Shown piece after piece: positions 2,683 through 62,312 of a stretch of 64,000 nucleotides of DNA (within the stretch, counting starts at the first letter, position 1; each line of letters opens with the position of its first letter). The notes under the pieces were generated by a model. It saw only the letters and a program-made list of their open reading frames with translations. It was not told where the DNA came from and ran no database searches. Both the position numbers and the translations under genes were made by a program. Source of the stretch: a virus (taxonomy: Duplodnaviria; Caudoviricetes); the IMG/VR virus record IMGVR_UViG_3300031992_000029, positions 1 to 64,000 of that record; one strand, given 5' to 3'.

Positions 2683-2845
2683 TTTTGTTCTCCTTTCATG
2701 TTTGAACGTGTATGTAATTGTCCGACGGGGTTCACCGCCAAGTCAAATTTACCATACAATTAGAAACTTTACAAGGTCCAGGTAGTGATCCACCAGGAGG
2801 CCAAATTGAGAATCGCTTTCTCAAATTCAATGTCCGCTTTTCTCC

Positions 2846-2923
2846 CAAACGGACGTTCGACCCAAAAATCGAACGGGTGTTCCCCCTGGTTAGGGTATTC
2901 TAACCGGCCCGAACGCATGTTTG
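2846..2923. promoter_or_regulatory. Three Gram-positive LexA/DinR (Cheo) SOS boxes
   Basis: CAAACGGACGTTCG (2846-2859), CGAACGGGTGTTCC (2870-2883), CGAACGCATGTTTG (2910-2923); fit GAAC-N4-GTTY. Confidence 0.75.
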
Positions 2924-3109
2924 GATCCAAGGCACTTCCCATAACAACACAATCCACATTTTTCATCTCTCCAATCTCACTCCATTTTCCACCAGGAACC
3001 GCCCTGATCATTAAATCCCATAAGCACGGCATTTCCAATATACAACCTGATCCTCTCCTACTTTTGGAAAACTCGTCGCTCCGGTCGTAACCAACCCCTC
3101 ACAAATGAT

Positions 3110-30600: not shown

Positions 30601-33600
30601 GAATTCAAATTGTTACAGGCTCGACAGACGCACAGATGGAGCACTTCTTCGAGGCGACAGCGGCTCAAGCTAAATCGCTTGGTAAGAATCTTACTGATGT
30701 AGCAGGTTCTATTGAGACATTCAGTAGACTTGGATATTCTATAAGTGATGCATCAGAGCTGTCGAAGTACGCTACTATCATGTCTAACGTCGCTGATGTT
30801 GATGTTGATGCGGCTACGACCGGTATAACTTCTATTATTAAAGGCTTTGACATGAAAGCCAGCGATGCTGAGCATGTTAGTGACGTTCTGGTACAGGTCG
30901 GTCAGAAATACGCTATTTCTGCCGAGGAACTTATGGAAGCGTTTGAGCGTGGCGGTGCAGCATTAAATGCTTCCGGAACTTCGTTCGAAAAATCTGCCGC
31001 TCTATTTGCGGCTACAAACGCATCGTTACAGAACGCTGCGACAACCGGTACGCTGTGGAAGACAGTATCTGCCCGTATCAGAGGTGCAACTACAGAGCTT
31101 GCTGAAATGGGCGAAGAGACTGACGATGTAGCATACGGTCTTTCTAAATATAGAGACGAAATCAAGGCGTTAACTGGTGGAGTCGACATCATGGTCGATG
31201 ACGAACATTATAAAGATATGTACGATATCTTTGTTGAGTTAGCGTCCGTTTGGGATACAATCGAAAGTGACACAAATAGATCTCGTATCGCAGAAATATT
31301 AGGCGGTACTAGAAACCTATCGGGTATATCTTCTACTATCCAAAATATTGCCGACGCAATTAATGCATATGACGACGCAATGAATGCGAGCAAGGTATCT
31401 GAAGAAGCAAATGCGTTATATATGGATACTGCTCGTGCTCATGCAGAACAGCTCAAGGCTACGTTCCAGGAGTTATCGGCTGATTTAGTCAATACTGATT
31501 TAATAAAGAGCGCTATAGACGCACTTAAAACTGTTCTTGAGCTCATAGATTCTATTATAAAGAAGTTCGGCGGGTTTACTGCGCTACCGATCGCTGGGCT
31601 GGTAGCCACTATCATGGAGATACATGATCTAGGTGGATTTAAAAGTTTCAGTGATTTTACAACTGCAATTGGGCTTATGGCGGAAAACGCTGTAGCTGCT
31701 GTTAGTTCAATTGGTTTATTACAGGCTGCATTAACATCTCTTGGTGTGGTTATTGCTGGTATAGGAATAATTGCACTTATCTCATACTTCGATAATCTAA
31801 ACCATGCTGTCGACAACGCAAGAAAGAACATGGAAGATACTGCGTCTGAGTATGAAAACGCTAGGAGCAAAACCGAAGGGCTAAAGCGTGAATTAGACGA
31901 AGCGAGAACAGCGTATGAAAATCTTGAGACTGCATCTCATATTGAATATGTCGATGAAACAGAACTTGAGAAGTTAAGAGAAGCAACGGAACTTCTTCAA
32001 CTTCAGTATGATATTGCAAAAAGAGAAGAAGAATCGAAGGCTATAGAGGCCGCCGACGCGGCTGTTAATGCGTATCGTACAGAGTTTAAAACTCCTGCAA
32101 GTGAAGATAAGTATAGGGAATATTATACTGGTAATAGAGACTATGGGACTGTAGCTTTACCTAATTTGACAGCAGACCATGGCAATATATCCGCTATGAT
32201 TGCCGCAGTTGATGTGTTCAGAGACTTACGCGACGAACAGGAAGAGGGTTCTGATGAGTGGCTTGAGTACGGAGAGGCTGCGAAAGAGACAGAAGACATT
32301 ATATGGGATCAGGTATCAACGCTTCTTGAGTATAAGAAAGCGATAGAGAGTATACCAGAAGAACTTCGTACAGACAGGCAAAAATCTACACTTGATGAAA
32401 TAGCGGCATCTATAGACTACATACAGTCGAAACTTGGTAGTCCATTAGACGACGTAATTAGTGGCACATCTGCAACGTATGACAAGGCTATAGAGAAGCT
32501 ACGCGGATATGTCGACGAAATGGTAGACGCCAATGTCGAAGAAGGTAACAAGAGATATAAAGAAGCGCTTGACGATCTAGCTAACTATGGCGTTGATGCG
32601 TCGAAGACTGTGTTCGGTAATATAGACCTAGGGAACAGACAGGTGTTGACATGGACAGAAGACATGCTGTCTAAGTATAAAGATGAGCTAGAGTCTTGGG
32701 GGCAATCTGTAGAAGAATTAAAAGGAGGCGTTTCGACTGTACTCGGTTCGTCTAGTGATTTTGGCGGATTGGAAATAGCGTTCTCTCCTATTCTCCAGAC
32801 TGAAGACGGCCCTGTTTTACTAGGTAAAGAAACAGTAAATACTTATATAAAAGATCTCATAGCCGAACTTAGCAAAGACGGCGGAGAATGGACCAGCGAA
32901 GACCTGCTTAAATTAGATGCTAAAGGTGCGACTGTCAATGGTAGAAAGATAAAAAATATCATTGCAGACATCGGAGATACTGCTAAGGATACTGGCGAGG
33001 TAATGCATTATCTCGGAGAAGACGGCGAGATTGCAGACGCGCTCAGACAGATTGACGATGCAAATAAGTTAGCTGCTATGTCTGCAGAGGACTTTGTAAA
33101 TGCATACGGATCTAATAATACTATAAATGATATTGTCGAAGAAGCAATCGCACTTGGAATTGCAGCAGATGATTCAGATTCAGAATTAAGTGAGCTGGCG
33201 ACGAAACTATTTGATGTTGGGATAATAGGAAGCGATACCGCTGGTGAGCTTGGAAATACAGTTCTTACGCTTGAAGAGTTAAGCGGAAAAATAAAAGAGT
33301 TTTCTGAATTCCAGGATAAGCTGACAAGTGCCATGGACGCATCCAAGAGCGCTGTTGGTCTTAACACTGAGCAAATTAACGATCTTAAGGACGCATACGG
33401 AAACCTCGAAGGCTTTGATGCCGCAAGACTATTTGAGACAACGTACAATGGTGTACATCTTAATGAGGAGGAACTTAAGAGGCTTAACGAAGAAGCAGCC
33501 AATAATAAGCTAGCTGATTTGTATACGACTCTAGCGTCAAAACTTGATGAGTATCACAGGGTTCAAGCCGAGGGTGGTGATACGTCTCGGATCGAGGACG

Positions 33601-36600
33601 AGATATACGACACGGAGCTTCTCATTTCACAATACGAAGGTCTTACGTCGGCATATAATACATACCTATCTGCTAAATCTGGAAAGAAAGAAAGAGATAG
33701 TTACGAAGGGATAGGCGACGACTATGAAGAGATGAAAAAGATTCTCGACATGGGCTGGTACGGTGATGATTCTCTTAACTCCTATCTTGATCTTATCCTC
33801 TCGAAGGCTGCTAGAACTGGTGACGCTGTTAAAGATTTCGAGCGTCTTAACAAGACAATAGAAGGAACATCTCACAGTATACTTGACTACTGGCAATACG
33901 ATGAAGATTCTAAAGAACTTGCTAGCGACGGATTGTTTAATTTCTTAAAAGACGTCAACAAGAAATTTGGTGATACGTACGCAAGTGTCGAAGACGGCAA
34001 TTATGTATTCGATCTCACTGGTAATAAGTTAAACGAGGTTGCAGATGCGTTCGGAATGTCTGCTGAAATGATACAGATATTTGAACGCGCTCTAATTGAC
34101 ACCGGATCTGTTGTCGTATTAGATAATGACAGAATCGAAGAGATAACTGGTAGTCTGAAAGATCTTCAGAACGCTGGCGAAATTAGTCCAGACATAGATC
34201 TCAATTTTGACTTAGCCGAGATGAGCTTAGAAGATATACAAAGTAAAATCAAAGAGCTTAACGAAGCAAAAGCAAAAATAAATGTAGAAACTGACGAAGA
34301 TGGAACTAGAAAGCTACAGCTTCTTGATGCCGCTGTGTCGGCGTTACAAAATAAAGCTGTCAACCTAAAGATAAACACTGCGATAGAGAATGGCGCTACC
34401 GTTGAAGAACTGATGAATATGGACGACGAGACACTTAAGTCTACGCTTAACATAGAAGTGAACGGAGATACAGAGCTTCAACAGGCGAGGGACATGTTAC
34501 AAACGTTGTCTAGCGGCACAAGTGTTCCAATAACAGTTAAGATTGATGAATCTCAGTTTAGTGCATTAACTAACTCTGGTAGCGAAGCTACGATAGTTTA
34601 TCACGTTAACAGAGCAGAAGTCGACGCATTTATGGAAGAAAGCCATGATGATGATGCTACTGTTACATATGGTGTCGATAGAAGTCTTGTTGATGCATTT
34701 AGGCAATCAAATATAAATAGAACTGCTACGGTCACTTATACGGCTGACACTAGTAAACTTCCAACGACATTTACTAGACTGAAGCGATATATCGATTATG
34801 TTCATGTCGGTGAAGCTAGCGGTACCATGAGGTCAGTTAAGACTGCTCGTGCTAATGGTAGTATGTATAACGCTCCGTTGAACTATAAGAGGGCGTTCGC
34901 GAATGGTAGTGTTGCTTTAGATGAAGATGAGCTTGCGTTGGTGAACGAGCTCGGTACCGAATCAATCATAAGAGACGGCATTTGGAGCTTAATTCCAGGC
35001 GGAATTCATCAAGAACATTTAAAGAAAGGCGACATTATTCTATCGGCAGAGCAGACTAAAGCTCTTATCAATACAGGTAAGGCTGCAGGTCATGCAAGAG
35101 CGTATGCAATGGGTACTCTTCTATCTAATGCTTACGACTCTGGTTCTGGCGCAATGCCTAGAAAGACGACCAGTAAGACAATATCGCTTGCTAAAAAGGC
35201 ATCGTCTAGCACAAAGAAATCTTCAAGTAAGAAATCTTCAAGCAAGAAATCTTCAAGCAAGAAATCGTCTTCGAGCAAAAAATCGAGCAAGTCTAGCAAT
35301 AGCAAAGATGACAGCGACGATTTTGACTGGATAGAAGTTCTTCTCGATAGATGGGAACGCGCTATTGATAATCTTAGCACACTAGCCGAAAGTATTTACA
35401 GGAAGTTAGGTGACAGAATTAGTGCCACTGATAAGGAAATTGAGGCTGTAACCAATCAGATAAGATTAGAGTATGCGGCATATGACAAATATATAGCTAA
35501 AGCAAATTCTATAAAGTTATCTGATGAATTAAAGGGTCAAGTCCGTAAGGGTGCTATTGATATATCAAAGTATAACAAGAATACACAAGACCTTATAAAT
35601 CAATATAAGGAGTGGTACGACAAAGCACTTGACGCAGCAGATGCGATAGACGACCTGCATGAGTCTTTAGCTGAACTATATTCTTCTCGGTTTGATACCA
35701 TCCAAACGCATTTCGAAAATAGACTCGCGCTTGTTGAGCATAAGATTCAATCGTACAATAACGATTTGGATAAAATCGTAGAACGCGGTTATATTGAGAG
35801 TACTAAGTATTATGAGGCAATTCGTGAATCCGAGGCACATAATCTTGAAACATTACATGATGAACTTTCTAAGCTGGTTGTGGCTATGTCAGAGGGGATG
35901 AACTCTGGAGAAATAGAGCACGGTAGCGAAGCATGGTTCGACATGCAACAAAAGATTAATGATGTTAAGGAAACAATACAAGAAACAGAACTTAGCATTA
36001 TAGAGACTGGCAATACGATTCGTCAACTCAAATGGGATAACTTTGAGTATCTGCAAGGTCTAATATCGAACGTTACAGAAGAGGCTGACTTCCTAATTGA
36101 ACTAATGTCTTCGTCCGATTTGTTTGAAAAGAACGGAGCTGTAACTGATAAAGGTATGGCTACGTTTGGTATGCACGCACAAAATTATAACGTGTATATG
36201 AATCAGGCTGATAGATATGCCGAACAGATTATGGAGATTAGCGAGGAACTTGCGAATAATCCATATGATACAAAACTGATAGAACAAAGACAGGAGCTGA
36301 TTAAGTTACAAAGAGAGTCTATTCTTAGTGCCGAGGATGAAAAACAGGCTATTGTCGATCTAACCGAAGAAGGCATTAAGAATGAGCTAGAATATCTCAA
36401 TGAACTTATAGATGCGTATAAAGACAGTCTTGACGATGCAAAAGATTTGTATGATTACCAGAAGAAGGTAAAAGATCAGGCGTCTGAGATTACAAAGCTA
36501 CAGAAGCAACTAGCGGCGTACGCTGGTGATACTTCTGAAGAAAATAGATCGAGAGTGCAGAAACTACAAGTCGAACTTGACGAAGCTATAGAGTCTATGC

Positions 36601-37718
36601 AAGAGACACAATACGATAGGTCGATAAGCGCACAGAAAGAACTTCTAGATAATTTCTATGATGACTACGAGGAACTTTTGAACGGCAGGCTTGATAACGT
36701 CGATCTATTAGTATCTGAGACGATTGATGCCGTTAATGGTAACGCAACCAGCATCAGCGAGACAATAGCAGATCAAGCTGACGTTGTAGGATACACAATT
36801 TCTGATGCGGTGACATCTATTTGGAGCGATGGTGGAGAAGCGTCTAACATCGTTACTAAATACGGAGAGACGTTTGCTAGAGAAATCACGAGCGTAAACG
36901 ACACATTAAATAGTATAGCTGCGTACGTTCATGCTATGGCTGAAAATAGCGACAGGATTGCTGACGCCGATATAGCTGGTAGTACTGGATATACAGCGAA
37001 GGTATCAACTAATACAGAGAATACATCAAAAGTGTCTAGTTCTATGGGTGCGGCTATAAATACTCCTGCTATGGCACATACAATCCAGCCAAAGAAGTAT
37101 ACGAACGCCACATCTACAGGAATTGCTAAAGGCGACACCATAAATGCTTCTGGAGCAAAGATATATAACTATGTTGGAGGTACTGCGTCTAATCAGGAGT
37201 ATGCTGACGATCCAATCTATACGGTAACAAGAGTATCTAGTGGATGGGTACAAGTAAGACATCACAGCATGTCTAATGGCGTTACCGGATGGTTTAAAAC
37301 TGGTAATGTAAAGAAATACAAACTAGGTGGTCTGGTAGATTATACCGGTCTAGCACAGGTAGATGGCACGCCAGACAAACCAGAATCGTTCCTTAACGCC
37401 GACGATACTCGTAATCTACTTGCGCTTATTGATACATTAAGAAGGATCAAGAATGGCACCGCGTCGATATTCGGTAGTCATACTGGTAATATCATAGAGA
37501 ATCTTGGAAGAGTTGCTGAACATCGAAGCGCTAATCGAGGAACAACCATTGGCGATATAAGTTACGAGATTAACATCCCTATTGACCACGTTGAAGACTA
37601 TGCTGACTTCATGAACAAGATGAGGTCCGACAGACAGTTTGAAACAATGGTTCAGGACATGACGATAGGACAGGTCGTAGGTAAGGGCAAGTTAAGCAAA
37701 AACAAATATTCATGGTGA
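27648..37718 (+). CDS. Tape measure protein (3356 aa)
   Basis: Long helical protein; TP901-type TMP core (~30.5-31.5 kb), hydrophobic TM-like segment, C-terminal SH3-like region and GGLVDYTG..VDGT..KPE motif. Confidence 0.92.
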   Translation: MGDKFTMKTPSSGGTTFEPARQQVVVQIIGEDKLKSFARTLNNIAHGIDLNKYWKGQQDLINDVSRAYANYMDNVSEASSADLIKNFNALKATGADISKIFSNYEDISSAYTNASRSYGMIASSFSEANFRDAFDSMEFMKGMGVDLNRVFEQLGNASFVENITKQLEESSVKFDKVKSDLESTRQKLEETQAQLERMKTGDIFVGYEDEILTLREKVATLRSENARLSTDFELAKEKAESEFKSFLRVNEIPFEDIDGYERFSDIFDNIREGALSGKEAIAAFKQEYRTEWEGVIGRGGDITGGINAEDMQAILSSIDNVKSGLGSMLKTLSDSMGTTSTVSLNLNELLSQLKEIANEYGTSSTIDDITTSLRMLIDSMSELGNVAPESINGMAAAFKNIRSINGIEVDPKAIDTIVEGLRSLSTIDDVGKLSVISNIDFSKYANLKVTKSSLNNLYTYLSSIADINADKLMAISQIDLSGLAGLKFTAGNADSFLSLTETIKNLGDSTNTFGGFGNLITELNKLEGIKLTKATSENLTNLLNAINNLHIDANINQLQSLDFSNFANIKINKGSLKNLAEFLPAIANSLSAINGVNLENVDALSKIDWGNWTSFDVKHESIEQFERLIEKISGAQVAVFNTGDQQYSSKKLEEGTARYARALSAVDKALVSARENARKWTAAQNGKSSGAYTKLQGSITALTTLKENIENYSGSKFREELDKINADINEAINTMSENNERFNADVMKKGSVDYSNALAQISNAIKGVESQSDRFKNIFAGTEVGADKLASLDAIVGKLKELNTAITTGSGISKDSYKERLAKIKEEAASLNEELSKLAREQKGTLVEGTKGYNDALTKLNSMLIQVTENSEKWDASKNGRTSANYEEYIAQGEAIRQLMSDIQAGNVTQKEFQERSAEIARTMKENEAAIRAEGEAVKSLGSSFQGVLGVLLKYFSLTRIMFAAINKAKEMVNTSMDIESAMTRIQIVTGSTDAQMEHFFEATAAQAKSLGKNLTDVAGSIETFSRLGYSISDASELSKYATIMSNVADVDVDAATTGITSIIKGFDMKASDAEHVSDVLVQVGQKYAISAEELMEAFERGGAALNASGTSFEKSAALFAATNASLQNAATTGTLWKTVSARIRGATTELAEMGEETDDVAYGLSKYRDEIKALTGGVDIMVDDEHYKDMYDIFVELASVWDTIESDTNRSRIAEILGGTRNLSGISSTIQNIADAINAYDDAMNASKVSEEANALYMDTARAHAEQLKATFQELSADLVNTDLIKSAIDALKTVLELIDSIIKKFGGFTALPIAGLVATIMEIHDLGGFKSFSDFTTAIGLMAENAVAAVSSIGLLQAALTSLGVVIAGIGIIALISYFDNLNHAVDNARKNMEDTASEYENARSKTEGLKRELDEARTAYENLETASHIEYVDETELEKLREATELLQLQYDIAKREEESKAIEAADAAVNAYRTEFKTPASEDKYREYYTGNRDYGTVALPNLTADHGNISAMIAAVDVFRDLRDEQEEGSDEWLEYGEAAKETEDIIWDQVSTLLEYKKAIESIPEELRTDRQKSTLDEIAASIDYIQSKLGSPLDDVISGTSATYDKAIEKLRGYVDEMVDANVEEGNKRYKEALDDLANYGVDASKTVFGNIDLGNRQVLTWTEDMLSKYKDELESWGQSVEELKGGVSTVLGSSSDFGGLEIAFSPILQTEDGPVLLGKETVNTYIKDLIAELSKDGGEWTSEDLLKLDAKGATVNGRKIKNIIADIGDTAKDTGEVMHYLGEDGEIADALRQIDDANKLAAMSAEDFVNAYGSNNTINDIVEEAIALGIAADDSDSELSELATKLFDVGIIGSDTAGELGNTVLTLEELSGKIKEFSEFQDKLTSAMDASKSAVGLNTEQINDLKDAYGNLEGFDAARLFETTYNGVHLNEEELKRLNEEAANNKLADLYTTLASKLDEYHRVQAEGGDTSRIEDEIYDTELLISQYEGLTSAYNTYLSAKSGKKERDSYEGIGDDYEEMKKILDMGWYGDDSLNSYLDLILSKAARTGDAVKDFERLNKTIEGTSHSILDYWQYDEDSKELASDGLFNFLKDVNKKFGDTYASVEDGNYVFDLTGNKLNEVADAFGMSAEMIQIFERALIDTGSVVVLDNDRIEEITGSLKDLQNAGEISPDIDLNFDLAEMSLEDIQSKIKELNEAKAKINVETDEDGTRKLQLLDAAVSALQNKAVNLKINTAIENGATVEELMNMDDETLKSTLNIEVNGDTELQQARDMLQTLSSGTSVPITVKIDESQFSALTNSGSEATIVYHVNRAEVDAFMEESHDDDATVTYGVDRSLVDAFRQSNINRTATVTYTADTSKLPTTFTRLKRYIDYVHVGEASGTMRSVKTARANGSMYNAPLNYKRAFANGSVALDEDELALVNELGTESIIRDGIWSLIPGGIHQEHLKKGDIILSAEQTKALINTGKAAGHARAYAMGTLLSNAYDSGSGAMPRKTTSKTISLAKKASSSTKKSSSKKSSSKKSSSKKSSSSKKSSKSSNSKDDSDDFDWIEVLLDRWERAIDNLSTLAESIYRKLGDRISATDKEIEAVTNQIRLEYAAYDKYIAKANSIKLSDELKGQVRKGAIDISKYNKNTQDLINQYKEWYDKALDAADAIDDLHESLAELYSSRFDTIQTHFENRLALVEHKIQSYNNDLDKIVERGYIESTKYYEAIRESEAHNLETLHDELSKLVVAMSEGMNSGEIEHGSEAWFDMQQKINDVKETIQETELSIIETGNTIRQLKWDNFEYLQGLISNVTEEADFLIELMSSSDLFEKNGAVTDKGMATFGMHAQNYNVYMNQADRYAEQIMEISEELANNPYDTKLIEQRQELIKLQRESILSAEDEKQAIVDLTEEGIKNELEYLNELIDAYKDSLDDAKDLYDYQKKVKDQASEITKLQKQLAAYAGDTSEENRSRVQKLQVELDEAIESMQETQYDRSISAQKELLDNFYDDYEELLNGRLDNVDLLVSETIDAVNGNATSISETIADQADVVGYTISDAVTSIWSDGGEASNIVTKYGETFAREITSVNDTLNSIAAYVHAMAENSDRIADADIAGSTGYTAKVSTNTENTSKVSSSMGAAINTPAMAHTIQPKKYTNATSTGIAKGDTINASGAKIYNYVGGTASNQEYADDPIYTVTRVSSGWVQVRHHSMSNGVTGWFKTGNVKKYKLGGLVDYTGLAQVDGTPDKPESFLNADDTRNLLALIDTLRRIKNGTASIFGSHTGNIIENLGRVAEHRSANRGTTIGDISYEINIPIDHVEDYADFMNKMRSDRQFETMVQDMTIGQVVGKGKLSKNKYSW
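35214..35290 (+). repeat. 15-bp tandem repeat encoding KKSSS linker
   Basis: AAGAAATCTTCAAGY x3 plus degenerate copies. Confidence 0.85.
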
Positions 37719-55129: not shown

Positions 55130-56983
55130 ATGGCTAATAATAAAGTTGAGTTATCAGACGGAAGTGTGCTGATAGACCTATCGCAAGATACCGTAACATC
55201 GTCTGACCATATTATGTCAGGGTATGTGGGGCATCTTGCGAGTGGCCTACAAGTCACAGGAACAGGAAATAATTATGTTATGTCGGATTGGAATGCTGAA
55301 GAAGTAACAGACTCTGAATCTGGAGAAATAACTGGATACGAAGATGGGTATATATTAAATAAACCCGCTATAAAAGCAGGCGAAGGTGAAAATAGTATCG
55401 TTGAAGGAATGATTGAAGATGATAATGATTCTAGAGTTTATACTATATATTTAACTGGCGAAGCGGGTGCTACTACTTTTACCTACACAACAGAAGATGA
55501 AACAACTAGAAACGAAATAGCGAAAAAAGCAAACGCAATACCATCAATAGGAATTGTTTATAGCCCTACTGGGTCAAATTCTCTTTATAGGACATCAAGA
55601 ATTAGTAAGATTGATTCAGAAAATTCAACTATTACTTTAAAAAATATAATAAATACGAAAACTAAAGCAGTAGAAAATCAACAAGCATTTATTTATTATC
55701 ATAGTAAAAATATTGCAATAAGCCCTTATTGTCATGCAGAAGGTAAAATTACTTTTGCATATCTGGGGGCGGCACATGCTGAAGGTATGTATACTGCGGC
55801 GGCGGGGTCTTATACACATGCTGAAGGATATGGTACTACAGCTATGTCACAATACAGCCATGCAGAAGGTAATAAAACTAGAGCTTCTGGCCCAGGAGCA
55901 CACGCAGAGGGTTCGTTAACAATAGCCGATAGCGGATATGCACATGCAGAAGGATATTATACTAAAGCACTTGACCAATCTTGTCATTCTGAAGGACATC
56001 ATACAAATGCTTCTAAAGCGGCTTCACATGCAGAAGGAAGAAATACAATAGCTTCTGGGTCATGCTCTCATGCGGAAGGAAACTTTGCGCTAGCTTCTGG
56101 TTTCGGTTCTCATGCTGAAGGTAATGTAGGATATATATTTATGAAATTAACAGGTGAGCCTAATGCAACAACATATAATTTTACTGAAAGTTATGCTTCT
56201 AATACTATTTTATTATTAAAAATGGCTCATACAAAAATCATAAGCGATACTGCTCATAATAATTTTAATCTTAATACTAGTTCTTATTCAACAATCACTA
56301 ATATTGATTTTAATAATTCGACCATAACTGTAGATACAACGTTATCTGACACAGCAATTTCTGATGTACAATACTATATATATTTAAGAACAGAAGCTAG
56401 TGGAATAGCATCTCATGCCGAAGGATTAAGTTCTTTAGCTTCTGGAGAGGGTTCTCATGCCGAAGGACGTCAAACACTTGCTAACGGAATTTATTCTCAT
56501 GCAAATGGGTATCTTACAACAGCTTCTGGAAATTATTCACATGCCGAAGGAACTCTTACAACAGCCTCTGGCAATAATTCTCATGCATCTGGTGAATTAA
56601 CAACCGCCGCCACAAAAGCGCAAACTGTAATCGGAACATATAATATCCCAGATGATACCACCACAAATCTTCATCCTAGTCAATATTCTGGATTTGGTAA
56701 ATATGCTTTTGTGGTTGGCAATGGATATGATACAGGAGGTGCATCTAACGCACATACTCTTGATTGGCAAGGTAATGGGTGGTATGCAGGTAAATTAACT
56801 GTAGGTAGTAATCCTACAGGAAATATGGATGTAGCAACAAAACAGTATGTAGATAATCATGTTCCAGATTTATCTGGTTATGTTGCAACTTCAAATTTAG
56901 CAACTTTAGTTAATCCTCTTATTCAAGCCGCATTAGCTGAATATGGAGATGGAGATACTGCTACTTATGGGACAACATCATAA
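55130..56983 (+). CDS. Tail fibre/adhesin with YadA-head-like (SHAEG) repeats
   Basis: Two arrays of ~14-aa A.G..SHAEG..T repeats; C-terminal DVATKQYVD. Confidence 0.8.
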   Translation: MANNKVELSDGSVLIDLSQDTVTSSDHIMSGYVGHLASGLQVTGTGNNYVMSDWNAEEVTDSESGEITGYEDGYILNKPAIKAGEGENSIVEGMIEDDNDSRVYTIYLTGEAGATTFTYTTEDETTRNEIAKKANAIPSIGIVYSPTGSNSLYRTSRISKIDSENSTITLKNIINTKTKAVENQQAFIYYHSKNIAISPYCHAEGKITFAYLGAAHAEGMYTAAAGSYTHAEGYGTTAMSQYSHAEGNKTRASGPGAHAEGSLTIADSGYAHAEGYYTKALDQSCHSEGHHTNASKAASHAEGRNTIASGSCSHAEGNFALASGFGSHAEGNVGYIFMKLTGEPNATTYNFTESYASNTILLLKMAHTKIISDTAHNNFNLNTSSYSTITNIDFNNSTITVDTTLSDTAISDVQYYIYLRTEASGIASHAEGLSSLASGEGSHAEGRQTLANGIYSHANGYLTTASGNYSHAEGTLTTASGNNSHASGELTTAATKAQTVIGTYNIPDDTTTNLHPSQYSGFGKYAFVVGNGYDTGGASNAHTLDWQGNGWYAGKLTVGSNPTGNMDVATKQYVDNHVPDLSGYVATSNLATLVNPLIQAALAEYGDGDTATYGTTS

Positions 56984-57000
56984 AGAGGGGGTGATTTTAA

Positions 57001-57924
57001 TTGGCAAACGAAAATAAGGTTATAGTTACAAAAAATAAATTAGATATATTAGCAAATAGTATTTCAGCCAAATCTGGAGAATCACTTCCTATGACCATTG
57101 TGGGAATGATTGATGCAGTAAATGGAATGAGTTCTGCCACATTAATATCAAAAACAATTACCACTAATGGGACATATACCGCTTCAAACGATAACGCAGA
57201 TGGTTATTCTAGTGTTACAGTTAATGTTCCACCTACTACTCCTACCCTTCAATCTAAAACAATAACTCCAACAGAATCAGTACAAACAATAACTGCTGAT
57301 TCAAATTATGATGGCCTTGATTCTGTAGAAGTTGGAGCAATTAGTTCGACTTATATTGGTAGTGGAGTAGCTAGAAAAAGTTCAACTGATTTAACTGTTT
57401 CTGGTGCGACAGTAACAGTTCCAAGTGGATATTATGAAGAATCAGCTTCTAAATCAATTAGTTCTGGCTCTGCTACTACTCCTGCAACAACCATTACTGC
57501 TAATCCCAGTATTAGTATTAGTTCATCTGGCTTAATTACTGCAACAGCATCAGCTTCGCAGAGCATTACACCTACGGTATCCGCAGGTTATGTATCTACA
57601 GGAACTTCTGGTACCATAACAGTAAATGGTTCTAATACCCAACAATTAACAATATTAGGGGCTACTACTTATAATACTTCTACTACAGATCAAACCATAA
57701 CTTCTGGAAAATATTTAACTGGGACTCAAACTATTAAAGCTGTAACTGTTAGTGGATTAGATGCAAGTAAAATATTGAGTGGGACTACTGTAATGGTTGG
57801 TGACGCAAATGATGCAGACAGAATTGCTAGTGTGACTGGTACTGTAACATTTTCAACAATTACGACATCATCATCAAATCCATCAGGCGGATCTGATGGT
57901 GATATTTGGATTAAGACAAGTTAA
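57001..57924 (+). CDS. Ser/Thr-rich tail fibre protein
   Basis: ITTNGTY...DGYSSVTVNV, LQSKTITP; ends PSGGSDGDIWIK. Confidence 0.7.
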   Translation: MANENKVIVTKNKLDILANSISAKSGESLPMTIVGMIDAVNGMSSATLISKTITTNGTYTASNDNADGYSSVTVNVPPTTPTLQSKTITPTESVQTITADSNYDGLDSVEVGAISSTYIGSGVARKSSTDLTVSGATVTVPSGYYEESASKSISSGSATTPATTITANPSISISSSGLITATASASQSITPTVSAGYVSTGTSGTITVNGSNTQQLTILGATTYNTSTTDQTITSGKYLTGTQTIKAVTVSGLDASKILSGTTVMVGDANDADRIASVTGTVTFSTITTSSSNPSGGSDGDIWIKTS

Positions 57925-57938
57925 GGAGGGATTAATAT

Positions 57939-59333
57939 ATGGCAACAATTAGATTAATCCCTTCTAATTACGGACGAAGTAATACTAACTATGTGACTGT
58001 AACGAATCCAGAAAATATGTATAATAATACTGACCATACAGCAAATTATTGTACATTAAGAGGTAGAGCTGGTAGAAGTAGTAATAGTACATACTACGCT
58101 TTTGTTAACGGATTTAATTTTGATGATGTTCCAAGTAATGCAGATGTAACTGATTTTAAAGTTAAAATTAGAGCCTATAGAAGTTCTTATATGGCTACTG
58201 GTAATACTAATTATCGTATTTCTTTAGCAAGTCAGGCATCAAACAGCTATAAAATAGGTAATACAACCTTATCTTCGGATATTACCACAACTGCTGGCGG
58301 AACAGTGTATGAAATTCCTACCGGAAGTTTAACTTGGGATACTATTAAAGGTTATGGTTCAAATTTTTCTATTGATATACCTTTAAGAAATAGTTCAACT
58401 TCAAGTAGTAACTATCCATATGTATATGTATATGGTGCTGAAATAGAAGTTACCTATACAATGCCTAATCCTAGAACGGTTACTACTACACTAACTGGTA
58501 ATGGTATAATAGATCCGAGCGGGACAGAAACTTACTATGATGATGATGAATATAATTTAGTAGTAACTCCTACTAATGCCTCTGATACTGTAACTGCGAC
58601 TAAAAATGGAACAACGATCACTTTAACTCAACACAGTGGCGGAGAATCAACTGAGTCAAATGTATTGGGAGAATATAGTTTAATAAGTGGCGGTTTAAAT
58701 GGTTCAGGTGCGACATATTTTCAAGGCATAGTTGGTCGCGGATATGATACTAGTACTACAACAACATCGAACTATTATTCTAGTGGCTCTGGTACTAATG
58801 CGGTATTTCAATATGACGTAGGTTTTACTGATATACCTGATAATGCTACGATTAAAAATTTATATATGATGGCAAATGGACACGCAGAATCAACATCTAA
58901 TTCTAGTGAATATATGTGTGTGCAACTTAAAAGTGGAAATACAGAACTATCAGAACGGTATAATTTTAAAAGTGCGGGTACTTCTAATTCAACTCAAACT
59001 ATTAATGCTACTACTTTACCAACTGCTGCGCAATTAGAAAATTTAGTAGTAGAATGTACTCTTGGTTATTATGGCGGCGCAATTAATGGAGTAACTGTGT
59101 TTTTAACTTATGAGGTTAGTGGCGTTTATTATACTTACAGCACGACAATTAATGGTGATATGACTGTTGTGGTTACTATTGGAAGTGTGACTCAAAATAA
59201 GATGTATATAAAAATAAATGGCTCTTGGGTTGAAGTATCGAAAGTATATAAAAAAGTTAATGGCTCTTGGGTCGAACAGACTAATTTAACTAGTGTGTTT
59301 GATTCAAATGTTAATTATAAATTTGTGAATTAA
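57939..59333 (+). CDS. Receptor-binding/fibre tip protein with two related beta domains
   Basis: F.DVPSNA.V / F.DIPDNA.I duplicate; C-terminal K.NGSWVE repeats. Confidence 0.65.
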   Translation: MATIRLIPSNYGRSNTNYVTVTNPENMYNNTDHTANYCTLRGRAGRSSNSTYYAFVNGFNFDDVPSNADVTDFKVKIRAYRSSYMATGNTNYRISLASQASNSYKIGNTTLSSDITTTAGGTVYEIPTGSLTWDTIKGYGSNFSIDIPLRNSSTSSSNYPYVYVYGAEIEVTYTMPNPRTVTTTLTGNGIIDPSGTETYYDDDEYNLVVTPTNASDTVTATKNGTTITLTQHSGGESTESNVLGEYSLISGGLNGSGATYFQGIVGRGYDTSTTTTSNYYSSGSGTNAVFQYDVGFTDIPDNATIKNLYMMANGHAESTSNSSEYMCVQLKSGNTELSERYNFKSAGTSNSTQTINATTLPTAAQLENLVVECTLGYYGGAINGVTVFLTYEVSGVYYTYSTTINGDMTVVVTIGSVTQNKMYIKINGSWVEVSKVYKKVNGSWVEQTNLTSVFDSNVNYKFVN

Positions 59334-59493
59334 ATATAGCTGATATTTATATAAGTGATGCAAAGATGGTTCGATTTTATACTATTTGGGATGGTAGTCA
59401 TATACGGCATAGAGGATGTATTATTGATGGTAGTCTTATGGCTGAAAACGTAGAATACGAATCAGTACAGTACCAAAAGAGTATTTAAACGAA

Positions 59494-59868
59494 ATGAGTT
59501 TTATATTTTATAATCCAAACCCAGACGGTAAGTATGTGGGAGACTGTGTTATTAGGGCGGTTTCAAGGTTGCTTCATCAGGATTGGGATACAACATATTA
59601 TGATATCTGTGAGCTCGGCGGTCATATACACAACATGCCGAGCGCAGACGATGTATGGGGCGAGTATCTATATCGAAATGGTTTTAGAAAACATACGATA
59701 CCAGATACATGCCCCTTTTGTTATACAGTAAAAGATTTCTGTCTGGATCATCCTATAGGCAGTTTTCTATTAAAAACATCCGGTCACGTAATAGCGGTTG
59801 TAAACGGGAACTACTATGACACGTCTGATTCGGGTAACGAAGTACCAATTTATTATTGGGGAAAGTGA
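59494..59868 (+). CDS. Putative papain-like (C39-related) Cys peptidase
   Basis: NPNP...GDCVIRA (Cys), GHVIAV (His), YDTSDS (Asp). Confidence 0.5.
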   Translation: MSFIFYNPNPDGKYVGDCVIRAVSRLLHQDWDTTYYDICELGGHIHNMPSADDVWGEYLYRNGFRKHTIPDTCPFCYTVKDFCLDHPIGSFLLKTSGHVIAVVNGNYYDTSDSGNEVPIYYWGK

Positions 59869-59875
59869 GAAATAA

Positions 59876-60214
59876 ATGAACAATTCAAATCCAAATATGA
59901 ATGTCCAAGGACAAAACGTGCAAGGCGTTTATAACACCCCTCAAAGTTTTCAAGTCCTAGTACTAGACGACATATCACAGGCAGGCAATTATCAAGTCAG
60001 CCCAGGATGCTCGACAATCTTTATGAATTTTGCAATGACAGAAATGAGGATGAGAACAAGAGACATGAGCGGGTTCCCCTTACCAGACAGAACGTGGTCT
60101 ATAAAAGAGACCACACCTCAACCGCAGATCGCTAACTCTGGAAATTTTGCAACCAAGGAAGAAGTGTCTGCGATTAACGACAAGCTAGACAAGCTAATTG
60201 AGATGATGAAGTAA
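59876..60214 (+). CDS. Hypothetical protein (cassette gene 2)
   Basis: 112 aa, N/Q-rich N-terminus, C-terminal FATKEEV coiled coil. Confidence 0.75.
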   Translation: MNNSNPNMNVQGQNVQGVYNTPQSFQVLVLDDISQAGNYQVSPGCSTIFMNFAMTEMRMRTRDMSGFPLPDRTWSIKETTPQPQIANSGNFATKEEVSAINDKLDKLIEMMK

Positions 60215-60227
60215 GGAGGATTTGAAA

Positions 60228-60428
60228 ATGGAACAGAATTTCGCACAACAGCTGCAGTCCTTTATCGCTGCGGCACAGCAGAGGTTCGGTAAGAACCTCG
60301 ACCCTTCCGCGATAGCTAGAAGCGTGATTGGTAATGGATGCTCTTCACCTCGACAAGCGCTAGAGGTAATGTTAAGATCCGGCCGGATAACGCAAGAGCA
60401 ATTTAACATGTACTCAAGAATGCTTTGA
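60228..60428 (+). CDS. Small helical hypothetical protein (cassette gene 3)
   Basis: RBS AAGGAGG; SGRITQEQFN motif. Confidence 0.75.
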   Translation: MEQNFAQQLQSFIAAAQQRFGKNLDPSAIARSVIGNGCSSPRQALEVMLRSGRITQEQFNMYSRML

Positions 60429-60482
60429 ACTATAAAGTAACTTTTTAAAATTTTTTATTACTCTAATAGGAGGAGAAAAATT

Positions 60483-61337
60483 ATGAGCTTAAGTGAAAGC
60501 GGCCTTAGTGCAAGTGATGTACTGGCACTGACAAACGGTAACAATGACGGTTTTGGAAACGGCTTCGGCGGTGGCTGGTGGCTGATTCTCTTTATCCTGC
60601 TTCTCAGTGGCGGATTCGGACGCGGTTGGGGATACGGCGGCGGCAACGGCGATTCCGGTAACGGTATGGCTAGCATGGCTATCCCTTATATGATGGGTAA
60701 CTCTTACAACGCCGACGTACAGAGAGGGTTTGACCAGTCCGCAGTTATTACTGCACTTGGAAATCTTTCCACGGCTGTTTCTGCCGGTTTTGCAAATCAG
60801 TCCGTAGACGCTTGTAACAAGGCAATGACGATGATGCAGGGCATGAATGGCATCCAGGCTCAGATGGCATCTGATCGTTTCAACACAATCACTACTTTGA
60901 ATGGTGGTCATAACGCAATTCTTCAGCAGATGGGTGCATATGAGATGGCTCGTCAGCAGTGCTGCTGTGACAACAAGGCTGCTATCGCAGACCTCAAGTA
61001 CACTGTTGCTACAGAAAATTGCGCAGACAGAACCGCTCTTGATAACGCTGTTTGGCAGATTGGTCAGAAGATCGACGCAGGATTTGCTAACATGACGGAG
61101 CAGAGATATCAGGATAAGATTGATTCCAAGAACGAGCAGATTGCTAACCTTCAGAGACAGCTTACCGCTCAGGAACTTGCCGCATCTCAGGCTAATCAGA
61201 CTCAACAGCTCTATGCAAACAATCAGGCTCAGACCGATAGGATTATGGACTTCATCAATCCTGGATACGCAAGACCTTTCTATGGAAACGGTTTTGGTAA
61301 CTGGGGTGGCTGCGGTTGCCAGGCTTGTGCTTCCTAA
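60483..61337 (+). CDS. Gly-rich membrane-anchored coiled-coil protein with CCC motif (cassette gene 4)
   Basis: GFGGGWWLILFILLLSGGFG, QQCCCDNK, heptads, C-terminal GCGCQAC; strong RBS. Confidence 0.85.
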   Translation: MSLSESGLSASDVLALTNGNNDGFGNGFGGGWWLILFILLLSGGFGRGWGYGGGNGDSGNGMASMAIPYMMGNSYNADVQRGFDQSAVITALGNLSTAVSAGFANQSVDACNKAMTMMQGMNGIQAQMASDRFNTITTLNGGHNAILQQMGAYEMARQQCCCDNKAAIADLKYTVATENCADRTALDNAVWQIGQKIDAGFANMTEQRYQDKIDSKNEQIANLQRQLTAQELAASQANQTQQLYANNQAQTDRIMDFINPGYARPFYGNGFGNWGGCGCQACAS

Positions 61338-61351
61338 GAAAGGAGGTACTT

Positions 61352-61777
61352 ATGGCTGAATATACAAATAACGTTGATCAGGTTGTTCAGCCTGGTGGCG
61401 TGGTTATATTTAACGTAGTCGTAGAAGGATGCCGCAAGGGTTTTATCAGGCACCGTAACGGCACTGGTTCTTTCCTTCTGTCTGGAGCAAATTGTTGCAG
61501 ATGTAACCCGAAGTATAGTGTTAAGTTCGGCGCGAACATCGGTGTGCCTACAGGTGAAACTGTCGGCCCTGTTTCTCTCGCACTTGCGATTGATGGCTCT
61601 GCCGATAACTCAACTATTATGACGGTTACGCCAGCCGCCGCGGAGGAACTCTTTAACGTTAGCAGATGTTCCGATATTGATATCTGGAGCGGATGTTGTG
61701 AAACCATCGCAGTCCAGAACGTTGGTACAATTCCTGTAACTGTCAATGCTCCTACAATTTCTATCAAGAGGGGATAA
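61352..61777 (+). CDS. Cys-rich beta-sandwich protein, BclA-CTD/C1q-like (cassette gene 5)
   Basis: RBS AGGAGGT before ATG 61352; alternating beta pattern, CCRC and GCC. Confidence 0.7.
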   Translation: MAEYTNNVDQVVQPGGVVIFNVVVEGCRKGFIRHRNGTGSFLLSGANCCRCNPKYSVKFGANIGVPTGETVGPVSLALAIDGSADNSTIMTVTPAAAEELFNVSRCSDIDIWSGCCETIAVQNVGTIPVTVNAPTISIKRG

Positions 61778-61779
61778 TT

Positions 61780-62229
61780 ATGGAAATTAGAGTTTACATG
61801 GATGCCCTGGAAGTGATTGAAAAAGAGATTAAGGGCATTGTTAAGAAAGATTCTATCACACCAGCTGAGCTGGCAAATTTAAAAGAAGCTCTGTGCGCTG
61901 CAGAGAAAATCATTGACATTATTGGCGACCTCCCTAATGATGCAAATGATTACAGCAATGGTACTGGGTACGCTCAGTCCTATGCTATTAGACCTGGATT
62001 CAGGCATGAATATGAAGCGCCATATTCGTACAGGCGCGGAAGGTCTATGACAACTGGTCGCTATATCAGTCGTGGTGAGGCCGGAAGAAACTATGGAGAT
62101 GTCTATAGTGGACATAGCATTCACGACAGAATGGTAGCCAAGATTGAAGAAATGTACGATGAAGCAAAAACTGACCATGAGCGTCAGGTAATCGATAATG
62201 CTATTCGCATGATCGAACAACACTCTTAA
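61780..62229 (+). CDS. Hypothetical protein with Y/R/G/S-rich linker (cassette gene 6)
   Basis: Helical ends flanking YSYRRGRS..GRYISR..YSGH. Confidence 0.8.
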   Translation: MEIRVYMDALEVIEKEIKGIVKKDSITPAELANLKEALCAAEKIIDIIGDLPNDANDYSNGTGYAQSYAIRPGFRHEYEAPYSYRRGRSMTTGRYISRGEAGRNYGDVYSGHSIHDRMVAKIEEMYDEAKTDHERQVIDNAIRMIEQHS

Positions 62230-62240
62230 GTGTTGTCAAA

Positions 62241-62312
62241 TGGCGGCGGGCTTTATGCCTGTCGCCTATACTAAAACAATGAACAACTAGGCCGTCGTAT
62301 GGCGGCCTTTTT
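62241..62312 (+). terminator. Two hairpins, the second with U-tract
   Basis: GGCGGCGGGC..GCCTGTCGCC and AGGCCGTC-GTAT-GGCGGCCT-TTTT. Confidence 0.7.

Follow-up and report, generated by a model that had tools for sequence, protein, structure and literature searches.

A conserved six-gene cassette in the late operons of gut and rumen phages

Background

Several described systems resemble parts of the locus we discuss here, and it is useful to lay them out before asking how far each comparison can be carried. BclA and F-BclA are exosporium proteins whose C-terminal domains have the TNF/C1q jelly-roll fold (PDB 1wck, 9h38), carried in BclA on a collagen-like GXY stalk behind an N-terminal exosporium leader. 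ExsFA/BxpB (ExsF) is a free-standing trimer of the same fold that docks the Pro-rich leader peptides of BclA and F-Anchor (PDB 7r1m, 8d02, 9h3d; PMC12357932). TNF/C1q-fold knobs are also common on phage fibres and spikes. C39 peptidases such as those of ComA and the PCAT transporters remove double-glycine leaders of the form LSxxELxxIxGG from substrates that leave the cell through an ABC exporter. Rz-type i-spanins and other lysis-cassette accessory proteins, such as XepA/XhlA of B. subtilis PBSX, place an N-terminal membrane anchor before long helices. Class I viral fusion proteins combine a hydrophobic peptide, heptad helices and a CX6CC-type Cys knot.

The locus considered here lies in a rumen phage (Duplodnaviria; Caudoviricetes; IMG/VR record IMGVR_UViG_3300031992_000029). 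We refer to positions 1 to 64,000 of that record, the whole 64,000-nucleotide stretch that was analysed, as the window. A sequence-only reading had singled out six tightly packed genes at 59494-62229, between the fibre block and the lysin and closed by two hairpins, and had offered two models: (a) a protease-matured, disulfide-linked, trimeric membrane-inserting machine laid out like a class I fusion protein, with a separate receptor subunit, or (b) a phage-encoded modifier of the spore surface or exosporium. We find that the observation itself is correct. The interpretation is only partly supported, since the anatomy fits model (a) while model (b) is not supported.

The six genes and their surroundings

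All six open reading frames are present on the plus strand, co-oriented and tightly packed. Upstream lie fibre-like genes (55130-59333), followed by a spacer of 160 nucleotides (59334-59493). A promoter in this spacer is possible, but it holds only weak sigma-70-like matches, no more than are found in shuffled sequence. Two hairpins follow the last gene. The first, at 62242-62266, has a 10-bp stem and no U run in both the MFE and centroid folds. The second, at 62289-62308, has an 8-bp GC-rich stem followed by a U run (fold z = -5.4, 0 of 200 shuffles as stable) and is an intrinsic terminator just before the start of an endolysin with GH25, CHAP and PG_binding domains. None of the six proteins matches a Pfam or NCBIfam family, and the PHROG families they hit are all annotated as of unknown function. 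None hits a holin, spanin or virion family.

The sequence-only reading claimed that the fourth and fifth genes share a high-expression codon bias with the capsid genes, and this is the one weak part of the observation. GC3 of g2 to g4 (0.46-0.51) is above the usual range of the genome (0.30-0.42), while the likely capsid gene has 0.415. A foreign origin explains this at least as well, because the adjacent fibre genes have a GC3 of only 0.14-0.17 against 0.35-0.51 in the cassette.

The first gene, g1 (59494-59868, 124 aa), encodes a putative thiol peptidase. It matches phrog_3754 at 4e-24 and has 3623 cluster representatives at E<=0.001. The Cys-His-Asp pattern noted earlier is invariant in 31 relatives (C18, H98, D109), in the order and at the spacing expected of C39 peptidases, about 80 and 11-16 residues apart. 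Its neighbours in the Atlas are named 'Endopeptidase', and one nearby cluster is 15% Peptidase_C39. However, there is no Pfam hit, and hhalign of the g1 alignment against six C39 domains from host genomes gives a probability of 0.1. Longer relatives of g1 carry no fused Pfam domain; they proved to be g1-g2 fusions (P0299 and P0351 among the proteins examined) or tandem g1 domains.

The second gene, g2 (59876-60214, 112 aa), encodes a core protein with a Q/P/Y/N-rich N-terminus, a small conserved beta region and a C-terminal helix. It matches phrog_21718 at 6e-5, the Atlas returns only viral hypothetical proteins, and the family is found in 58 of 70 genome and phage loci and 72 of 80 viral loci. 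The third, g3 (60222-60428, 68 aa), is a helical Q-rich protein with a weak match to phrog_22984. Its family is found in 45 of the 70 loci, and the family consensus holds an SGxxxQxQF motif. The sixth, g6 (61780-62229, 149 aa), has an N-terminal helix, a low-complexity middle rich in Y/S/R/G and a C-terminal helix. It matches no family above noise, but the family we built from it is found in 51 of the 70 and 50 of the 80 loci.

The fourth gene, g4 (60483-61337, 284 aa), is a core protein that matches phrog_16490 at 5e-16 and has more than 6600 relatives at E<=0.001. It has a conserved leader, a Gly/Asn-rich region, a hydrophobic segment flanked by WW (about residues 31-44), two long helices (85-134 and 143-258), CCC at 160-162 and a Pro-rich and then Cys-rich tail. 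The sequence-only reading had described a Gly-rich leader, a hydrophobic stretch, heptads split by CCC and a Cys-rich tail; the Gly-rich leader, hydrophobic core, CCC and Cys-rich tail are real and conserved. CCC is found in 125 of 136 relatives. Across those 136 relatives the most hydrophobic 15-residue window has a median Kyte-Doolittle value of 2.0 and starts at a median of residue 31, and WW/W flanks are seen in 32 printed examples. The helices come from an AF2 monomer model that is poor (pLDDT 49), and the charges flanking the segment do not fix its orientation. It is the only hydrophobic segment in the six proteins, none of which has a signal peptide. If g5 acts outside the cell it must get there by lysis. 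A resemblance of the Gly-rich hydrophobic segment to YjcZ-type tiny sporulation proteins was considered, but the NCBIfam search gave it no support.

The fifth gene, g5, runs from an ATG at 61352 to 61777 (141 aa; a TTG at 61316 is the longest start). It matches phrog_20016 at 1e-36 and has 624 relatives. It had been described as a Cys-rich, jelly-roll-like protein, and the predicted structure bears this out with high confidence (AF2 pLDDT 93.2, pTM 0.86). The model is a compact ten-strand jelly roll of the TNF/C1q type, matched by Foldseek to the F-BclA C-terminal domain 9h38 (probability 1.00, E 2.4e-7) and also to BclA and ExsFA. For the BclA and F-BclA C-terminal domains the Foldseek E values are 2e-7 to 3e-6, and VIA gives Z 17.1 and 16.8 with an rmsd of 1.7-1.9 over 122-123 residues (Z 17.1 with 1.7 over 122), which covers the whole of g5. 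ExsF follows with Z 14.6. The homotrimer typical of the fold is inferred for g5 from the fold only.

Sequence searches did not add to these identifications. No Pfam family, including BclA_C, matches g5 at E<=1, and searches of PDB sequences with g1, g4 and g5 and with profiles of g1, g2, g4 and g5 gave only noise or coiled-coil hits. A search with the cassette DNA against the phage collection found nothing; only protein-level searches work. Literature searches for BclA-like phage proteins and for DUF6782 found no description of the cassette, and we found no characterised system of this kind.

A fixed order at variable sites

The sequence-only reading also suggested that similar uncharacterised arrays exist in clostridial phages. 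They do, and far beyond chance. The order 1-2-3-4-5-6 is seen in 39 of 70 genome and phage loci and in 37 of 80 IMG/VR loci, and the rest show a five-gene core of g2, an ORF in the g3 slot, g4, g5 and an ORF in the g6 slot. At least 573 IMG/VR contigs encode a g5 relative, and the operon is found in hundreds to thousands of gut and rumen phages. Failure of the genes to co-occur, or a match to characterised holin or virion proteins, had been named beforehand as grounds for rejection, and neither was found. On plasmids there was one hit only, on a large Vescimonas replicon. A search through the lysin for close relatives of this phage found only two distant loci, though a sister phage has a g5 that is 87% identical.

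A sister variant of the cassette lacks g1 and carries a small HExxH peptidase instead. Of the loci compared, 85 have g1 and none of them the HExxH gene, while 39 have the HExxH gene and none of them g1. This exclusivity may reflect only two lineages and not many independent swaps. In the HExxH variant the g3 slot is filled by a non-homologous ORF of 76-84 aa (110 aa in one locus). The mutual exclusion of the two peptidase genes and the natural g1-g2 fusions together suggest that the putative peptidase is integral to the cassette.

The cassette sits at different places in the late operons of unrelated phages. In the window it lies between fibre genes and lysin. In Ceridwen, Dulem virus 33 and a number of the genome loci it lies between lysin-holin and integrase or repressor, with 7 integrase, 4 ImmA/IrrE and 3 HTH hits among the two ORFs next downstream. 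In one locus (L036) it lies between a minor head protein and a scaffold, and in five loci directly upstream of ORFs of about 580 aa, one downstream neighbour hitting the terminase nuclease domain. In some loci an HNH endonuclease and a methyltransferase are inserted within it. With its own terminator, at least four kinds of insertion site and a composition unlike that of its neighbours, it behaves as an autonomous, moron-like phage cassette, although its promoter remains only a possibility.

These features might suggest a module for superinfection exclusion, defence, counter-defence or lysogenic conversion expressed from the prophage, since the cassette is terminator-insulated, often lies near att or the integrase, and contains a membrane protein. 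We consider this improbable. The cassette is also carried by phages seen only in the lytic cycle (Ceridwen, PMC7372960) and by phages with nrdD, dUTPase and RuvC arms, and in several loci it lies in the middle of head or packaging operons. Six conserved, structural-looking proteins are also more than known exclusion systems need.

The spore-surface model

The arguments for model (b) rest on the fold of g5, whose best structural matches are the exosporium proteins BclA, F-BclA and ExsFA/BxpB, and on its Cys-rich and Y/S/R-rich low-complexity partners, which recall coat proteins. Three Lachnospiraceae hosts do have SpoIVA and Spo0A, as does the B. subtilis control. However, complete six-gene cassettes lie in prophages of Butyrivibrio sp. 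INlla21 and Anaerovibrio lipolyticus DSM 3074, whose genomes give no SpoIVA_ATPase and no Spo0A_C match, although these assemblies may be incomplete. They also occur in Selenomonadaceae contigs, and the lytic Butyrivibrio fibrisolvens phage Ceridwen, which is cultured with its host DSM 3071, carries five of the genes in order plus a nearby g6 relative.

The proteins themselves also differ from exosporium proteins. Identity between g5 and the BclA domains is 13-16%, and neither an exosporium-leader family nor collagen repeats were found. The first strand of g5 begins at residue 2, its relatives are 139-169 aa, and no longer or shaft-fused forms were found. It carries an invariant CC pair (115-116; 136 of 136 relatives) and a Cys-rich loop. 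The comparison with ExsF is closer in one respect, since both are stand-alone TNF-fold proteins of similar size, and g4 ends in a conserved Pro-rich motif (roughly P-[IV]-P-[AS]-[YF]-x-V-x-N-P in sampled relatives; NPGYARPF in the window's own protein) that could dock in a similar way. Such docking is hypothetical, there is no sequence similarity to ExsF, and several hosts have no exosporium. The likeness to BclA and ExsF is real, but it is a shared fold and not a shared role. We regard model (b) as very unlikely and already largely refuted.

Virion device, exported material or envelope assembly

Model (a) fits the anatomy: a dedicated putative peptidase, a single Trp-flanked hydrophobic segment followed by two long helices, conserved CCC and Cys-tail motifs, and a free-standing TNF-fold protein. 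Trimerisation, binding of g4 to g5, cleavage of g4 and any fusion activity remain inferences. A complex prediction with three copies of g5 and three of g4 residues 200-284 scored 0.02 without controls, which says nothing for or against binding. The Cys count of the g5 loop does not correlate with that of the g4 tail (Spearman -0.07), so covariation gives no evidence for g4-g5 pairing. The likeness to class I fusion proteins lies in the linear layout of g4 and the separate head subunit; there is no evidence for a trimer of hairpins, and no enveloped particle is involved.

The main rival to our reading is that model (a) describes a device on the virion, with g4 trimers and g5 heads forming an auxiliary fibre or membrane-penetrating spike matured by g1. 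The structural matches of g5 include the cyanophage A-1(L) short fibre, the phi812 central spike, TM4 gp23, PRD1 P5 and the Sf6 needle knob. In the window the cassette directly follows the fibre genes, all insertion sites lie within late structural operons, and every one of them is compatible with a virion protein gene. The hydrophobic peptide, long helices and Cys knot of g4 resemble a fusion-protein layout. Against this, the cassette is nearly identical in architecture in phages with unrelated structural modules and sizes, from a 40-kb siphovirus to contigs of 137 to 165 kb, and it has no conserved neighbouring virion gene to attach to. In many temperate phages it lies after the lysis genes, next to the integrase and behind a terminator. 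Receptor-binding heads are usually variable, whereas g5 is conserved at 70% mean column identity. The absence of a g5 fused to a shaft points the same way but is weak evidence, and low-complexity Q/P/Y and Y/S/R/G proteins are unusual in virions. A virion role seems unlikely to us, but it is not excluded.

A second rival, somewhat less likely still, is that the cassette makes material released at lysis or displayed on the cell, a bacteriocin-like, matrix or adhesin assembly. In this view g1 would remove a double-glycine-like leader from g4, and the Cys-, Tyr- and Gly-rich proteins would cross-link into a particle or coat acting on neighbouring cells or on the gut surface. Many g4 leaders read L-S-x-x-D-[IV]-x-x-[VL]-x-G-[NG], in register with LSxxELxxIxGG, although the second Gly is usually Asn. 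A dedicated peptidase of one type or the other is always present, the position next to lysis and integrase genes is where phage-borne exported factors often sit, and the cassette is found in gut and rumen samples. However, g1 shows no profile similarity to C39 peptidases, no ABC exporter is found in or near the cassette, and no toxin or immunity gene is recognisable. A second leader type, [FM]TMPV[AM]P, replaces the LSxxD type in many loci with either peptidase.

The comparison with i-spanins and PBSX-type accessory proteins rests on the N-terminal anchor of g4 followed by long helices with conserved Cys, and on a position beside holin and endolysin genes in many phages. There is no family match and no lipoprotein partner, most hosts have a single membrane, and the unit has six genes and is often placed far from lysis genes. 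We also considered g4 as the holin and set this aside, because a holin-like ORF of 121 aa and a second membrane ORF follow the lysin in the window. It should be said that in four phages of the HExxH variant the cassette follows the tail genes and no Pfam lysin domain lies within 8 kb of it, so a direct lytic role there cannot be excluded.

We believe the six genes are one self-contained, horizontally mobile operon that phages of gut and rumen Bacillota carry inside their late structure and lysis gene blocks. What it most likely builds, with a probability of about 0.4 in our opinion, is a peptidase-processed, Cys-rich multiprotein assembly. Its centre would be g4, a single-pass, Trp-flanked membrane anchor with a long helical stalk, and g5 would be the most likely head or docking hub. 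The low-complexity and helical proteins g2, g3 and g6 would be partners, and g1, or the HExxH enzyme in the sister variant, the processing enzyme. We place its action at the cytoplasmic membrane or envelope of the infected cell late in infection, around lysis, and not in the virion or on a spore. The mean column identities of g4 and g5 (61% and 70%) across phages of Lachnospiraceae, Oscillospiraceae and Selenomonadaceae argue for partners inside the cassette or a universal target and not for a strain-specific receptor. Our analysis establishes the gene set and its fixed order, the fold of g5 as predicted, the conserved putative catalytic residues, the peptidase swap, the g1-g2 fusions, the hydrophobic anchor, the terminator, the varying insertion sites and the presence in non-sporulating hosts. 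That the proteins form one complex, that it lies in the membrane, that it is made late, that g1 is catalytic and that the role is directed at the envelope are inferred from sequence and predicted structure alone.

A more speculative reading, which we think unlikely although nothing here rules it out, is that the cassette encodes a previously undescribed kind of phage machine: a protease-matured, disulfide-knotted membrane spike made of a g4 helical stalk capped by a g5 TNF-fold trimer and assembled with three low-complexity helpers. Thousands of gut and rumen phages would deploy it at the host envelope late in infection, for example to rupture or remodel the envelope or to bind infected-cell remnants, with a thiol or a zinc peptidase as an interchangeable maturation enzyme.

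Whichever reading is right, a fixed operon of five to six genes, made of proteins without a known function, is carried by a large share of gut and rumen Bacillota phages. Its proteins are strongly conserved across phages of different host families. That points to selection for a general step of the phage life cycle that current models of infection and lysis in Gram-positive anaerobes do not include.

Genomic context of the six genes

The cassette lies in a 137,481-bp IMG/VR phage record, of which the window is the first 64 kb. Between the fibre-like genes (55130-59333) and an endolysin with GH25, CHAP and PG_binding domains there are six co-oriented ORFs separated by gaps of only 2 to 54 nt. 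These are g1 at 59494-59868 (124 aa), g2 at 59876-60214 (112 aa), g3 at 60222-60428 (68 aa), g4 at 60483-61337 (284 aa), g5 at 61352-61777 (141 aa) and g6 at 61780-62229 (149 aa). A spacer of 160 nt precedes g1. Two hairpins follow g6, at 62242-62266 and 62289-62308, and the second has a U run and ends 8 nt before the first possible lysin start (fold z = -5.4). The sequence-only reading had described six packed genes closed by two hairpins, and that observation holds. Antisense ORFs of 238 aa (60489-61205, minus strand), 126 aa and 114 aa overlap g4, g5 and g6 respectively, but they are most likely by-products of the biased composition of these genes.

The GC3 of the cassette is 0.35-0.51, while it is 0.14-0.17 in the three fibre-like genes next to it and 0.30-0.42 over most of the genome, so this part of the genome is a mosaic. 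The low value in the fibre-like genes suggests a recently acquired host-recognition module. Just beyond the window the lysin is followed by a holin-like ORF of 121 aa with an N-terminal membrane segment (genome 64341-64706), a second membrane ORF of 169 aa (64743-65252) and a reverse-strand tyrosine-recombinase-like ORF, read as an integrase, of 400 aa (65794-66996); in the fetched locus that covers this region, L152, they lie at 442-807, 844-1353 and 1895-3097. This 137-kb phage may therefore be temperate. The structural region also holds a single ORF of 3356 aa at 27648-37718.

Sequence families and conservation of the cassette

Searches of Pfam and NCBIfam give nothing above noise for any of the six proteins. 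PHROGs places g1 to g5 in phrog_3754, 21718, 22984, 16490 and 20016, all of them annotated as unknown function, and sequence and profile searches of the PDB are empty. Relatives of g5 number 624 in the 90%-clustered protein collection, relatives of g4 exceed 6600, and g1 has 3623 representatives of 50% clusters. At least 573 IMG/VR contigs encode a g5 relative.

We built HMMs for the six genes from the window proteins and iterated them on ORFs of the retrieved loci. In 70 genome and phage loci the order g1-g2-g3-g4-g5-g6, all on one strand, occurs 39 times, and in the 80 best viral loci it occurs 37 times. Most of the remainder show g2-g4-g5. In the six such loci that were examined a non-homologous ORF of 76-84 aa (110 aa in one) fills the g3 slot and an ORF of about 200 aa (293 aa in one) fills the g6 slot, so the core is five genes. 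Phage Ceridwen of Butyrivibrio fibrisolvens, which has been observed only in the lytic cycle (PMC7372960), carries g1 to g5 in order plus a g6 relative nearby; its cassette genes are QHJ73765-QHJ73769 and QHJ73771, and with B. fibrisolvens DSM 3071 it forms a cultured host-phage pair.

Position of the cassette in other phages

The position of the cassette is not fixed. In this phage it lies between the fibre genes and the lysin, whereas in Ceridwen and Dulem virus 33 it comes after the lysin, small ORFs and a terminator and is followed by early or lysogeny genes. Across the genome loci the two ORFs next downstream include an integrase (7 hits), ImmA/IrrE (4) or HTH (3). In L036, a locus from a Lachnospiraceae prophage, the cassette lies between a minor head protein and the scaffold and capsid genes. 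In five loci it is directly upstream of ORFs of about 580 aa; separately, six upstream neighbours across the set carry Sigma70_r4, and one downstream neighbour hits the terminase nuclease domain. In four loci of a sister variant that carries an HExxH gene, the cassette lies between tail proteins and a reverse-strand arm with nrdD, dUTPase and RuvC. In four phages of this variant (loci L021, L038, L062 and L065) it directly follows the tail genes, and no Pfam lysin domain was found within 8 kb on either side.

Mobile genes interrupt the cassette in places without breaking its order. An HNH endonuclease lies between g3 and g4 in Dulem virus 33 (locus L002, 4410-4961), and a DNA methyltransferase lies between g4 and g5 in L036 (6825-7940). 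By a strict rule, a terminator-like hairpin with a T run follows g6 in 30 of 82 loci. The contig labels name Lachnospiraceae, Oscillospiraceae, Selenomonadaceae, Butyrivibrio, Anaerovibrio and others; a few Bacteroidales, Methanobrevibacter and Saccharibacteria bins may be mis-binned phage contigs.

Since every insertion site is in a late operon, a fibre or penetration device borne on the virion is not excluded, although we consider this main rival unlikely. The moron-like character of the unit and its frequent proximity to an integrase could also be read as a module for exclusion, defence or conversion, but this seems to us more doubtful still.

Predicted features of the six proteins

The structure prediction for g5 has high confidence (pLDDT 93.2, pTM 0.86) and gives a TNF/C1q jelly roll. 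The best structural matches are the C-terminal domains of F-BclA and BclA (VIA Z 17.1 and 16.8, rmsd 1.7-1.9 over 122-123 residues), and ExsFA scores Z 14.6. EDA, C1q family members and several phage fibre or spike knobs follow. TNF-fold knobs are common on phage fibres, and this is the other reason that a virion-borne device remains possible. The protein has no stalk. It begins with a nearly invariant MAEY, and it keeps CC at 115-116 in 136 of 136 relatives and a Cys at loop position 51 in 93%.

The leader of g4 is conserved. In many loci it is in register with a double-glycine leader, while in others it is a Pro-rich type. After the leader comes a Gly/Asn-rich stretch, then a hydrophobic core of 12 to 14 residues flanked by WW and W, and then a further Gly/Trp stretch. 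Two long helices are predicted next, at residues 85-134 and 143-258, but these come from AF2 secondary structure and the monomer model itself is poor (pLDDT 49). The conserved Cys positions are CCC at 160-162 (125 of 136) and C180, and there is a Pro-rich motif and a tail with mostly four Cys. The charges that flank the hydrophobic core do not fix its orientation. The double-glycine-like leader, taken together with a dedicated putative peptidase, would fit a bacteriocin-like or matrix assembly released at lysis, but we regard that reading as improbable.

In all 31 aligned relatives g1 keeps C18, H98 and D109, along with N7, P10, D17, R21, W31 and W55. The g2 protein has a Q/P/Y-rich N-terminus, a small conserved beta region and a C-terminal helix, g3 is a short Q-rich helical protein, and g6 has helices at both ends and a Y/S/R/G-rich low-complexity middle. 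None of g1, g2, g3, g5 or g6 has a signal-peptide-like or membrane segment.

A putative peptidase belongs to the system

In the sister variant a 106-aa HExxH protein (Pfam DUF6782; PHROG 1233/87 metalloprotease) follows the g6 slot. Across the 150 loci with g5, 85 have g1 and lack the HExxH gene, 39 have the HExxH gene and lack g1, none has both, and 26, many of them truncated, have neither. Two proteins in the 50% cluster library, P0299 and P0351, are natural g1-g2 fusions. Three others from this library, P0317, P0365 and P0390, are tandem two-domain relatives of g1. P0317 and P0365 begin with an N-terminal hydrophobic segment, while P0390 starts inside the first domain, and in P0317 the second copy has Ser in place of the catalytic Cys, like a pseudo-enzyme partner. 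We read the distribution as the replacement of one processing enzyme by a non-homologous one, although the two variants may be just two lineages, and we read the fusions as a functional link between g1 and g2. The assignment of g1 as a peptidase is inferred from sequence, and it is not demonstrably a C39 peptidase: there is no Pfam hit, and hhalign against six C39 domains taken from host genomes gives a probability of 0.1.

The spore-surface hypothesis

The predicted fold of g5 and its Cys-rich and low-complexity partners invite a spore-surface reading, which was one of the two models offered from sequence alone. However, the genomes of Butyrivibrio sp. INlla21 (locus L005) and Anaerovibrio lipolyticus DSM 3074 (locus L013) each hold the full six-gene cassette and give no match to SpoIVA or Spo0A, while three Lachnospiraceae hosts and the B. 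subtilis control do give matches. The cassette is therefore not tied to sporulation. A spore-related role rests on fold likeness only and is very unlikely. The other model, a protease-matured, Cys-linked, membrane-inserting assembly with a separate head subunit, fits the anatomy of the cassette, and the interpretation made from sequence alone is partly supported.

Comparison with known systems

By its predicted structure g5 is a member of the TNF/C1q superfamily, but it does not belong to any sequence family, and none of the other five proteins can be placed in a known class. The module as a whole matches no described phage system in the libraries or in the papers that we could search. We class the cassette as categorically new in kind, with the plain caveat that its function is unknown. 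The ExsF precedent is a useful working analogy for g5 and the Pro-rich tail of g4, and it is no more than an analogy. In ExsF a free-standing TNF-fold trimer holds Pro-rich leader peptides in its inter-subunit clefts, and the BclA leader is proteolytically trimmed (PMC12357932).

What the cassette most likely does

The unit moves between phages as a block, it sits at several positions of late operons, it often has its own terminator, and it is conserved far more than receptor-binding proteins usually are. The gene order, the varying positions, the conserved residues and the mutual exclusion of the g1 and HExxH genes are results of this work, whereas processing by g1, the association of the proteins with one another, their place at the membrane and the timing of their action are inferred. 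With that distinction in mind, we believe these features point to an autonomous accessory operon whose proteins work with each other rather than with a particular virion. The most likely product in our judgement, which is tentative and to which we would give a probability of about 0.4, is a peptidase-processed, Cys-rich assembly built around the membrane-anchored g4 stalk, with g5 as head or docking hub, acting at the envelope of the infected cell around lysis.
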